From Dictyostelium discoideum (taxonomy: Eukaryota), in NCBI GenBank assembly GCA_000004695.1, contig CM000153.2, positions 4,480,001-4,544,000 on the forward strand: a stretch of 64,000 nt of DNA. Direction: 5' to 3'. The notes under the pieces are model-generated. The model was not told where the DNA came from and made no database searches. It saw only the letters and a program-made list of their open reading frames with translations. The position numbers were made by a program, and so were the translations under genes. The number at the start of each line of letters is the position of its first letter. Positions within the stretch are counted from its first letter, which is position 1. Shown piece by piece: positions 40,436-48,203 of this stretch.

Positions 40436-40952
40436 TTAGAATGGTATAAATTCAGAATTTGAAGAACCACCAAAGGAATTAAATGAATCATTGTCAAAAG
40501 AGTTATTTGAAAAGAATGGATATGGGTCACCATTATTTGAATGTGAAGACATGAAAGGATTATTTGGTATAGTACTATTGTTATTATTATTATTATTATT
40601 GTTGTTATTATTATTAGTACTATTATTATTATTGCTGTTATTATTATTGTTATTGTTATTATTATTATTATTATTATTATTGTTATTATTATTATTACTA
40701 TTTTGAATTTGGGTAGAAGAATTTGATAAACGAGGAGGTGAATTTGGTAATGGTGCGACAGCAGTACCTAATTGTCCACCAACACCTTCAGTTATAAAAA
40801 GGTCCAATAATTCACTTAATGTTTCAGAATCTCTACTTGAAGCGTTACGAAATACTCTCCTAACTTTTTCTGCTCTTTGTCTTGGATCTAATTGTGTATA
40901 TGCGTTCATCATTTGTTTAAAACTATCTTCAAATCCACTAATATTATTATTA

Positions 40953-40984
<32 letters not shown>

Positions 40985-42001
40985 TATATTACAGTTATTA
41001 TTGTTACTAGTACTAGTATTACTATTATTATTATTATTATTATTGTTATTATTTAACGTATTTGATGAAGAATTTAAATTATTTGATGATGTATTATTTA
41101 AAGTTGAAGTTAATAAATGAGAATTTACAAGGGTTGGTGATGAAGATGGTGAAGATGAAGGTGAAGATGAAGTTGAAGAAGGTGGTGAAGGTAAATTAAT
41201 TGCAGAGGAAGAGGTTATATTATTTGAAGAGGTAGTGGTTGTGGTGGTTGTAGTGTTGTTATTGTTGGTGGTGGAGGTACTACCACTTAAACCTGCTTGT
41301 TGTTGTAAAAGTTTTTCAATTAATTTTTGTTGTTCATGTTGTTGATGTTGAATTTTTGAGACGGATTCCAATAGGATATCATTCCAAGTACGCTTTTTAG
41401 GAGGTTGCTTTTTTTTTAATTGTTCAGGTTTTGAGATGACTTTAATAGAGTGAGTTAATGCGTAGAGTCCTTTGATGGGTTCTTTGGAGATTGGGTCTTG
41501 TCCTTCGATTTTCACACGAAAGAACATATCTTCGTGTTGTGAAGTTAATACTTTAATACGTAATTCAATGTTTACCAATTCACCAGTCTCATTGGGTGAT
41601 GCTTTATGTTCGACCGGTTTCACTTTAACGAAATCTACTTCCTTCTCTTCATTGGTATCACAATCATAGAGTAATGTCGATTCAAATGCAACACAATTCA
41701 AATCGATTTCATTTGCTTTCTTTAATCTTAATTGAACATTGAATGGACTATTCTTTATAACCACTTTAATATTCTTTTGTAAACCATTTAATGTTACTTT
41801 CTCTTCAAATGGTGATGATTGTGATGCTAATTCTAATCTTTCTTCATGTGTTGATAATTGAATTTGCATTTGTTGTGGTTGTTGTTGTTGTTGTTGTTGC
41901 TGTTGCTGTTGCATTTGTTGTTGTTGCTGCTGCTGCATTTGATGCTGCATTTGTTGAAACTGTGGTATGTATTGAATTTGCTGGTCAAAATTATTAATCA
42001 T
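40436..42001 (-). CDS. Q/N-rich putative nuclear DNA-binding protein, paralog 1. 521 aa, single exon. Possibly a CudA-family regulator.
   Basis: The core domain reads IKVVIKNSPFNVQLRLKK...AFESTLLYDCDTNEEKEVDFVKVKPVEHKASPNETGELVNIELRIKVLTSQHEDMFFRVKIEGQDPISKEPIKGLYALTHSIKVISKPEQLKKKQPPKK. It is flanked by poly-Q, poly-N, poly-T and S/P-rich tails. It is paralogous to the gene at 46380..48203. The CudA attribution is a recollection of domain architecture, not a verified match. Confidence 0.5.
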
Positions 42002-42040
42002 TCTTTTGAAAATGCTATATTTTAATTATTATTATTATTA

Positions 42041-42072
<32 letters not shown>

Positions 42073-46125: not shown

Positions 46126-46216
46126 TTTTATTATTATTTCAATTACAATGAATTCATTAAAATATTAAAAAAAAAAAAAAAAAAAAAACACCAACAACCC
46201 TTTTTTTTTTATTTTC

Positions 46217-46253
<37 letters not shown>

Positions 46254-46379
46254 TATGCACTGTCTATTTTTAACACGTTTTTAAAATTTAAAATAATAAT
46301 TTTTTATTTTATTTTATTTTTAATTTCAATTTTTATAAATAAATATTAATACAAATGTATTGTTATAAGGGATGTAATA

Positions 46380-48203
46380 TTAAACTATTGGTAATTGTAA
46401 TAAATCATTTGTTAGATTTGAATTATTTGGTTGATGGTGATGATGATGGTGATGATTATTTACAGAGATTGAATTATTCATTTGACTTTGCGTATTGTTA
46501 TCATTTGATGATGAAAATAATGAAGAATATAAAAGTTGTTGATTATTCATTGGATTTAAAGTTGATTGAGGAACGAAAAAGTTCATACATAAACCTTGAA
46601 ACCTTTCTAATTCTTTCTTGGATGGACAATTCTCACAGAAGCAACCAATACTATTGTTATTATTATTGTTACCTCCTTTTGTTGATGATACATCACTATT
46701 TGCATCACCAACACCAAGTTCATCCATAAATGTAGCAACCAATTGCTCTAAATCATCAGAACGTAATTGTTCAACCATTTTCGTAATAATATCTTTTCTT
46801 TCAGATTCTGGTACGTATTTAAATGCTTCGACAACTCTATTAAATGAATTTTGAAAATTACTCGATTGATTTTGTTGTTTTTGTTGTTGTGGTTGTACAG
46901 GTTGTTGTTTTTGTTGTATAGAAGAAGCAGAAGAAGAGGAAGTAGTAGTGGTAGTATTATTATTAGTCGAAGATACTTTTTGTTGTTTTGATTGATGATT
47001 TAATAATTGTTGTTGTAAATGTTGTTGATTTTTCTGTTTTGAAATATTGAAATCGATTGAATCATTATCGTCATCATCATTGTTATCATCGTCATCAGAT
47101 TCATCGGATTCACTTGAATCATTATTATTATTATTATATTTATTATTACCATTTGAATAAGAACTTAATGAAGGGGTAGAAGAATTTGAAGAATCATCAC
47201 AAATTGAACCACCACCATTTTGACAATTGGAATTACTATTATTATTATTATTATTATTATTTTGATCTTTTTTTGAACAATAAGGTTCCATATCGAATTC
47301 AATTAAATGTTGTTGATATAAATTTTTAATCCATTTACTTTGACTATCTTGAAACTTTTGTAATTTCTTTAATTTATCTGTAAGAATTTCATGAAATGTC
47401 TTTTTCTTTAATATTGGTATACCTTCTTTTTTAACATGATCAACTTTTGAAACGATTCTAATTGGATGAGAAACAACACAAAGATTATAGATTGGATTTG
47501 GTAATTGGGAATTTAAATTTGCTATTGAATTACCACCTATATTATTCAAGATGGTCATAATTGGTTCATTAGGTGATGGGGATGGTACACTTGTATGACT
47601 TATATGTAAAACTGCAAGAAACATTGAGCCTTGATGTTGTGATGAAAGAATACCAACCTTTACATCAACAACAACTTCAGTACCATCTTCACTAACGGTT
47701 GCAACATATTGTAATGGTTCATTATGAATAAAATCTACCATTTTTGGTGGATCACAATCATAGAGAAGTGTAGCTTTAATAACATAATTATGAAAATTGA
47801 ATTGTGGATCGTTTGATTTCATTGAAATACCAAATGGTGTGTTTTTAACTACAACATGAACTTGTTTTATAAAATTATGTGGTTTTTGAAGTTGACAAAG
47901 AACTTGTTGTACATAATAAGGATTTAAAGAATTTAAAGAATAAACACTCGATTGGTTATTGTGTTGTTGTTGTGAATGATTTTGTTGTTGTTGTTGTTGC
48001 TGTTGTTGTTGACCTTGTAATTGTAAAATTTGTTTATTTTTTAAAGCATTTGCAGCTGGACTACCATTTTTATTTATAATTGGTGAACCTCCATTTTGAA
48101 TTGAACTTATTAATGTTTGTAACTTTGGTGGAGAAAATTTAATCTCTTCTACAGCCACCGCACCTTGTTTTGTAATTTCAATTAAAGCTTGATTATAAAT
48201 CAT
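46380..48203 (-). CDS. Q/N-rich putative nuclear DNA-binding protein, paralog 2. 607 aa, single exon. Possibly a CudA-family regulator.
   Basis: The core reads VHVVVKNTPFGISMKSND...IKATLLYDCDPPKMVDFIHNEPLQYVATVSEDGTEVVVDVKVGILSSQHQGSMFLAVLHISHTSV...IYNLCVVSHPIRIVSKVDHVKKEGIPILKKK. It is collinear with the core of the 40436..42001 gene (VKNxPF, TLLYDCD, VDF, SQH, HxIxxxSK). A C-terminal segment RKDIITKMVEQLRSDDLEQLVATFMDELG is shared with paralog 1 (LSELLDLFITEGVGG). Flanks are poly-Q, poly-N, poly-H and acidic. Confidence 0.5.
   Translation of the reverse strand: MIYNQALIEITKQGAVAVEEIKFSPPKLQTLISSIQNGGSPIINKNGSPAANALKNKQILQLQGQQQQQQQQQQNHSQQQHNNQSSVYSLNSLNPYYVQQVLCQLQKPHNFIKQVHVVVKNTPFGISMKSNDPQFNFHNYVIKATLLYDCDPPKMVDFIHNEPLQYVATVSEDGTEVVVDVKVGILSSQHQGSMFLAVLHISHTSVPSPSPNEPIMTILNNIGGNSIANLNSQLPNPIYNLCVVSHPIRIVSKVDHVKKEGIPILKKKTFHEILTDKLKKLQKFQDSQSKWIKNLYQQHLIEFDMEPYCSKKDQNNNNNNNNSNSNCQNGGGSICDDSSNSSTPSLSSYSNGNNKYNNNNNDSSESDESDDDDNNDDDDNDSIDFNISKQKNQQHLQQQLLNHQSKQQKVSSTNNNTTTTTSSSSASSIQQKQQPVQPQQQKQQNQSSNFQNSFNRVVEAFKYVPESERKDIITKMVEQLRSDDLEQLVATFMDELGVGDANSDVSSTKGGNNNNNNSIGCFCENCPSKKELERFQGLCMNFFVPQSTLNPMNNQQLLYSSLFSSSNDNNTQSQMNNSISVNNHHHHHHHQPNNSNLTNDLLQLPIV

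Follow-up and report, generated by a model that had tools for sequence, protein, structure and literature searches.

In a stretch of 64,000 nucleotides of Dictyostelium discoideum DNA (assembly GCA_000004695.1, contig CM000153.2, positions 4,480,001 to 4,544,000 of the forward strand; the window, with positions counted below from its first letter), two genes with Q/N-rich products bracket a third, unrelated gene. This arrangement raises the question of which protein family the two genes belong to, and whether they are neighbours because one is a local copy of the other. Both are uninterrupted open reading frames of the minus strand, as expected from the prediction of two single-exon genes lying 4.4 kb apart in the same orientation: one spans 46380..48203 and encodes 607 aa, the other spans 40436..42001 and encodes 521 aa. 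Their coordinates differ by 4,379 (46380-42001), which leaves 4,378 bp between the genes. An exact-sequence look-up identified the 607-aa product at every residue with DDB_G0286351 (XP_637770.1/EAL64200.1), which bears the UniProt name ‘Developmental gene 1062 protein’ and is named cdl1a (cudA-like) in the methods of Kin et al. (2022; PMC8808424); the length of its coding sequence, 1824 nt, is the value given in their RNA-seq table. The exact look-up of the 521-aa sequence in the protein collection gave no match; this sequence corresponds to the rows of DDB_G0286447 (cdl3) in Data S2 of Kin et al. (2022), both in the trimmed alignment and at the start of the full alignment. Independent annotation of another D. 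discoideum assembly (GCA_054883475.1) likewise gives two genes of one exon each, with products of 607 and 521 aa, the latter identical to the one described here. Table 1 of Kin et al. (2022) lists 4,379 bp and a shared orientation for cdl1a–cdl3 on D. discoideum chromosome 4.

The Cdl1A/Cdl1B/Cdl3 system of Kin, Chen, Forbes & Schaap (2022, Curr Biol 32:428) therefore concerns the same genes, with no difference. The original prediction was right and contains nothing new, as both genes, their family, their linkage and the function of cdl1a are already in print. A lineage-specific transcription-factor family was nevertheless correctly recognized from raw sequence alone. To this we add only small points: the core and a full-length homologue were modelled structurally, the C-terminal domain was tested statistically, the intervening orphan gene was found to belong to a conserved triplet, and the DNA-binding domain of cdl1a was seen to be interrupted by its poly-Q tract. 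We hold with high confidence that cdl1a and cdl3 encode Amoebozoa-specific Cud developmental transcription factors, predicted to bind DNA, which diverged anciently and became neighbours before dictyostelid groups 3 and 4 parted.

The two genes are two of the six Amoebozoa-specific Cud (CudA-like) developmental transcription-factor genes. In a composition-adjusted BLASTP comparison their cores are 28% identical over 243 columns (E = 6e-16), and this bears out the collinear shared core proposed from the VKNxPF, TLLYDCD, VDF, SQH and HxIxxxSK motifs, all of which fall within the alignment. The proteins had been taken for nuclear regulators of the CudA family, with a BLAST comparison against CudA as the proposed check, and both do match CudA (DDB_G0284465): against the CudA core from the supplementary alignment of Kin et al. 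(2022), BLASTP gives 45% identity over 178 aa for cdl3 (E = 6e-38) and 30% identity over 183 aa for cdl1a (E = 2e-17). Both proteins are also present in that alignment, which places them within the five published ortholog groups (cudA, spaA, cdl1, cdl2 and cdl3). Both cdl1a and cdl3 keep the family motifs that hardly vary, L..SQHE..F and V.SK, together with KN.PF, which is strongly conserved across the family. Kin et al. (2022) state that two short motifs, the mutation of which lowers DNA binding by Entamoeba CudA, are conserved in Cdl1A.

In the precomputed annotation, PF28397 (DG1062_N) is assigned to cdl1a and also to the cdl3 orthologues of D. purpureum and T. lacteum. The cdl3 product itself has no Pfam match on record in the annotated assembly, so its membership in the family rests on BLASTP and on these orthologues; hmmscan with a Pfam copy older than PF28397 found no domain at E <= 1 in either protein. 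A single-sequence search with the cdl1a core returned three proteins only, CudA not being among them. PF28397 is carried by all 54 homologues from another single-sequence search and by the best 120 of 357 profile matches, and these 120 are all cdl3-like. Among the 54 and 357 homologues the named organisms are Amoebozoa, bar one evident JGI mislabel (FliE): the named sources are Dictyostelium, Heterostelium, Acytostelium, Tieghemostelium, Cavenderia, Physarum, Balamuthia and Stereomyxa, the others being environmental transcripts. A literature search on ‘DG1062’ gave instrument model numbers only.

CudA and SpaA (DDB_G0287317) share with cdl1a and cdl3 the homologous β-rich core, the basic cluster and helix that follow it, and a related C-terminal FxxxF...helical domain. 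They are nuclear regulators of development, as Cdl1A and Cdl3 are predicted to be, and like these they are limited to Amoebozoa. Their ortholog groups differ, and so do their roles: prespore and tip cells for CudA, sporulation for SpaA and cup cells for Cdl1A. Sequence-specific DNA binding and nuclear localization have been published for CudA, ECudA and SpaA, and both CudA and SpaA bind promoters directly, in the case of SpaA as seen by ChIP; the SpaA ChIP-seq supplement mentions neither cdl1a nor cdl3. Whereas direct DNA binding has thus been demonstrated for CudA, ECudA and SpaA, it is predicted for Cdl1A and Cdl3, which would bind DNA sequence-specifically via their β-sandwich. Three conserved parts are found in each protein, namely this β-sandwich, a basic cluster with a helix of about 30 residues, and a three-helix C-terminal domain, all sitting within long Q/N/S/T-rich low-complexity tracts. 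The likely role of the basic cluster is in nuclear import, in contacting DNA, or in both, and both proteins are probably dimers held by the helix after the β-sandwich, as reported for CudA. Yamada et al. (2008) are reported to have defined the DNA-contact motifs and the dimerization of CudA, and a model of STAT ancestry is also Yamada's. CudA is reported to recognize dyads that contain GAA.

We consider it very unlikely that Cdl3 is instead a regulatory partner or decoy, using its Ig-like domain and helix for protein contacts, for example in heterodimers with Cud proteins. Ig-like folds are indeed generic interaction modules, and cdl3 is missing from the list of cell-type-specific transcription factors of Forbes (2019), both of which would suit a partner that does not itself bind DNA. 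Yet its core shares 45% identity with the core of CudA, the DNA-binding protein on which the family was founded; it has retained the L..SQHE..F, V.SK and KN.PF motifs as well as the basic KKR cluster; and its orthologues have been kept from Physarum to Dictyostelium with at least 51% identity. The literature searched contained no study of cdl3 beyond its naming.

Structure prediction had been suggested as a second check on the core, with a STAT or Ig-like DNA-binding fold in mind, and an Ig-like/STAT-like β-sandwich is what the models predict. Two independent AlphaFold models, one of the core and one of a full-length homologue (pLDDT 89 and 83), contain a β-sandwich, a long helix and a helical C-terminal domain. 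The β-sandwich can be superposed on the cores of the p53-like class (p53, Rel, Runt, CP2 or STAT), and on these models PF28397 is an Ig-like β-sandwich of about 140–170 aa belonging to the p53/STAT/Rel/CP2 structural class. There is next to no chance, on the other hand, that cdl1a and cdl3 are true members of the STAT family, orthologous to metazoan or Dictyostelium STATs. In the structural comparison of the model, STAT scores no higher than CP2, velvet, EBF, p53 or generic Ig domains, and it does not rise above them when the query also includes the helical C-terminal half. Neither protein has an SH2 domain, a STAT coiled coil or any other Pfam domain at E <= 1, and no sequence-level match to any solved STAT was obtained, the PDB search with the family profile giving noise only (E >= 0.079). 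In the model, an SH2 domain is absent C-terminal to the core, where a single helix and the three-helix domain are found; the four-helix coiled coil of STATs is also absent, as the models start with β strands and only poly-Q/low-complexity sequence lies upstream. A Foldseek search of the PDB returned mostly nanobodies at a TM score of about 0.3, which is non-discriminating. More generally, the members of the p53-like/Ig-fold class (STAT, CP2/Grainyhead, Rel, Runt, EBF, velvet and NDT80/MYRF) have no detectable sequence similarity to cdl1a or cdl3, and the SH2 domain of STAT, the dimerization domain of Rel and the tetramerization domain of p53 are all missing from the two proteins.

The two genes had been described as a paralogous pair. 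They are paralogues, but they are not local tandem duplicates, as both CudA and a Physarum gene resemble cdl3 more closely than cdl1a does. In bits, cdl3 scores 266 against the presumed Physarum gene g13500, 166 against CudA and 86 against cdl1a, while cdl1a scores 364 against cdl1b, which lies on another chromosome, and 138 against Physarum g26; the best reciprocal scores join cdl1a with cdl1b and Physarum g26, and cdl3 with Physarum g13500. Judged from these sequence comparisons, the cdl1 and cdl3 ortholog groups split before the divergence of Dictyostelia and Physarum. The genes came to lie side by side only after that, in the ancestor shared by dictyostelid groups 3 and 4. The cdl1–orphan–cdl3 triplet is present in D. 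purpureum (gap of 4,271) and in T. lacteum (gap of about 3,147); its genes are dispersed in Acytostelium and Cavenderia, and in group 1/2 species cdl1 and cdl3 either sit on separate contigs or are over 10 kb from each other, the linkage being limited to groups 3–4. A recent tandem (local) duplication, after which the two copies diverged where they stood, on either side of an inserted gene, would fit the shared orientation, the distance of 4.4 kb and the common domain order. It is effectively refuted by the bit scores of cdl3 and by the location of cdl1b, the closest relative of cdl1a, on another chromosome, as well as by the separation of cdl1 and cdl3 in group 1/2 species and by the unlinked locus that the orphan gene has of its own in Acytostelium. 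The two genes are thus anciently diverged paralogues that became neighbours.

The intervening gene, predicted to be unrelated to its neighbours and to have four exons, proved to be so. It lies on the minus strand at 43376..46125 (exons 46125-45665, 45588-44805, 44723-44309 and 43797-43376), with GT-AG introns of 76, 81 and 511 nt, and this splice model gives 693 aa, the length of the annotated product. The protein has no Pfam match and no similarity to the products of the flanking genes (best E = 1.4). With exon 2 as the query, 11 homologues were found among 1.84 billion representatives, all of the named ones being from Amoebozoa, and in D. purpureum and T. lacteum the gene occupies the syntenic position. 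There is an outside chance that the triplet, the order and orientation of which have been kept since the group 3–4 ancestor, is a co-regulated developmental module. If this were so, Cdl3 would work together with Cdl1/Cdl1A when stalk and cup differentiate, and the orphan protein might do so too; the conserved helix could, for example, join Cud proteins into heterodimers, and the genes would use enhancers in common within the long intergenic DNA that flanks them.

The domain order can be followed along both genes, all positions being on the minus strand. In cdl3, the predicted DNA-binding β-sandwich occupies aa 56-189 (41435..41836) and the long helix aa 206-236 (41294..41386), with a basic KKKQPPKKR cluster before it; this helix is H158-188 in the model, the numbering of which is offset by 48 residues from that of the protein. 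The helix/basic segment is kept family-wide as KPEQLKKK..KKRT..RIEKQQxEQQKLIEKL. The conserved C-terminal helical domain of cdl3 covers aa 356-427 (40721..40936; FEDSFKQMMNAY...SETLSELLDLFITEGVG), and in the model of the full-length homologue the region of this type forms three helices with pLDDT > 90. In cdl1a, the corresponding C-terminal domain covers aa 446-544 (46572..46868; FQNSFNRVVEAF...LEQLVATFMDELG) and is followed by a CxCxxCPxKKELER motif, of the general form CxCxxCPxKxELER. BLASTP aligns this domain of cdl1a with that of a short homologue (P0156) with 33% identity over 112 aa (E = 1e-13). A C-terminal HMM built from other species only recovers residues 356-427 of cdl3 at 73.5 bits and residues 446-544 of cdl1a at 40.6 bits, compared with a best domain score of 7.5 bits among 400 shuffles, and the C-terminal helix thought to be shared by the two proteins is thereby confirmed.

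The main body of the predicted β-sandwich of cdl1a lies at 47439..47876 (approximately aa 110-255) and contains a dictyostelid-specific loop insertion of about 31 aa (approximately aa 203-233): cdl1a and P0156 are 47% identical (E = 9e-53, BLASTP), with a 31-residue gap opposite cdl1a. The probable first β-hairpin of the domain is placed provisionally at 48135..48188 (approximately aa 6-23; ALIEITKQGAVAVEEIKF). This segment aligns by eye at 7 of 13 positions with residues 13-25 of P0156, which directly adjoin the VHVVVKN strand, and it has the same placement in the family alignment of Kin et al. (2022). A short HMM for the first hairpin picks up residues 7-19 of cdl1a at -0.6 bits, which is not significant, so the placement rests on the comparison with P0156 and is kept provisional. 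Between the hairpin and the rest of the domain, where the VVKNTPF strand begins at about residue 115, there is a low-complexity/poly-Q insertion of about 90 aa. The poly-Q N-terminus of the original prediction is therefore to be revised for cdl1a, as the comparison with P0156 and the published alignment both make its tract an insertion inside the DNA-binding domain. The long helix of cdl1a (47304..47396, approximately aa 270-300), preceded by a basic KKEGIPILKKK cluster, aligns with helix 206-236 of the cdl3 model and with TDSLMDTLNRIEHQQKEQQRLLKKL of CudA; helix and cluster would have roles in dimerization and as a nuclear localization signal.

That the similarity between the two proteins is a Q/N-rich low-complexity artefact of unrelated ORFs can be dismissed: although more than 40% of both proteins is low-complexity and the genome has about 20% GC, the aligned core is not low-complexity, holds the quoted motifs and keeps its E value of 6e-16 under composition-adjusted statistics, both proteins match independent homologues and CudA with E values of 1e-17 or lower, down to 1e-75, and shuffle controls were negative.

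As to function, Kin et al. (2022) give the expression pattern of Cdl1A-YFP, place Cdl1A in prestalk and then in cup cells, and report that deletion of cdl1a abolishes the cup cells, which hold up the spore head, together with cup-gene expression. Forbes (2019) lists DDB_G0286351 as prestalk-specific, and expression of the Cud family is confined there to development. The gene is in print as a textbook-style example of how a new cell type, the cup cells, appeared after duplication of a transcription-factor gene, and this makes its locus of interest to the Dictyostelium field.

Finally, the region upstream of cdl1a had been described as 7.8 kb of gene-free DNA. This AT-rich intergenic region (48204..56015), which contains the cdl1a promoter, measures 7,812 bp and ends at the ATG (56016) of a divergently transcribed PHO80-like cyclin gene, so that the gap is common to both genes. 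It holds no ORF of at least 70 aa except an artefactual poly-F one, searches for tRNAs and Rfam families gave nothing, and no gene is called there in the annotated assembly, which upholds the description; its only repeats are A/T-rich simple ones. A complex developmental promoter within the gap is plausible, and Kin et al. (2022) report that the proximal 3.08 kb drives a cdl1a-YFP construct that suffices to rescue the cdl1a knockout.

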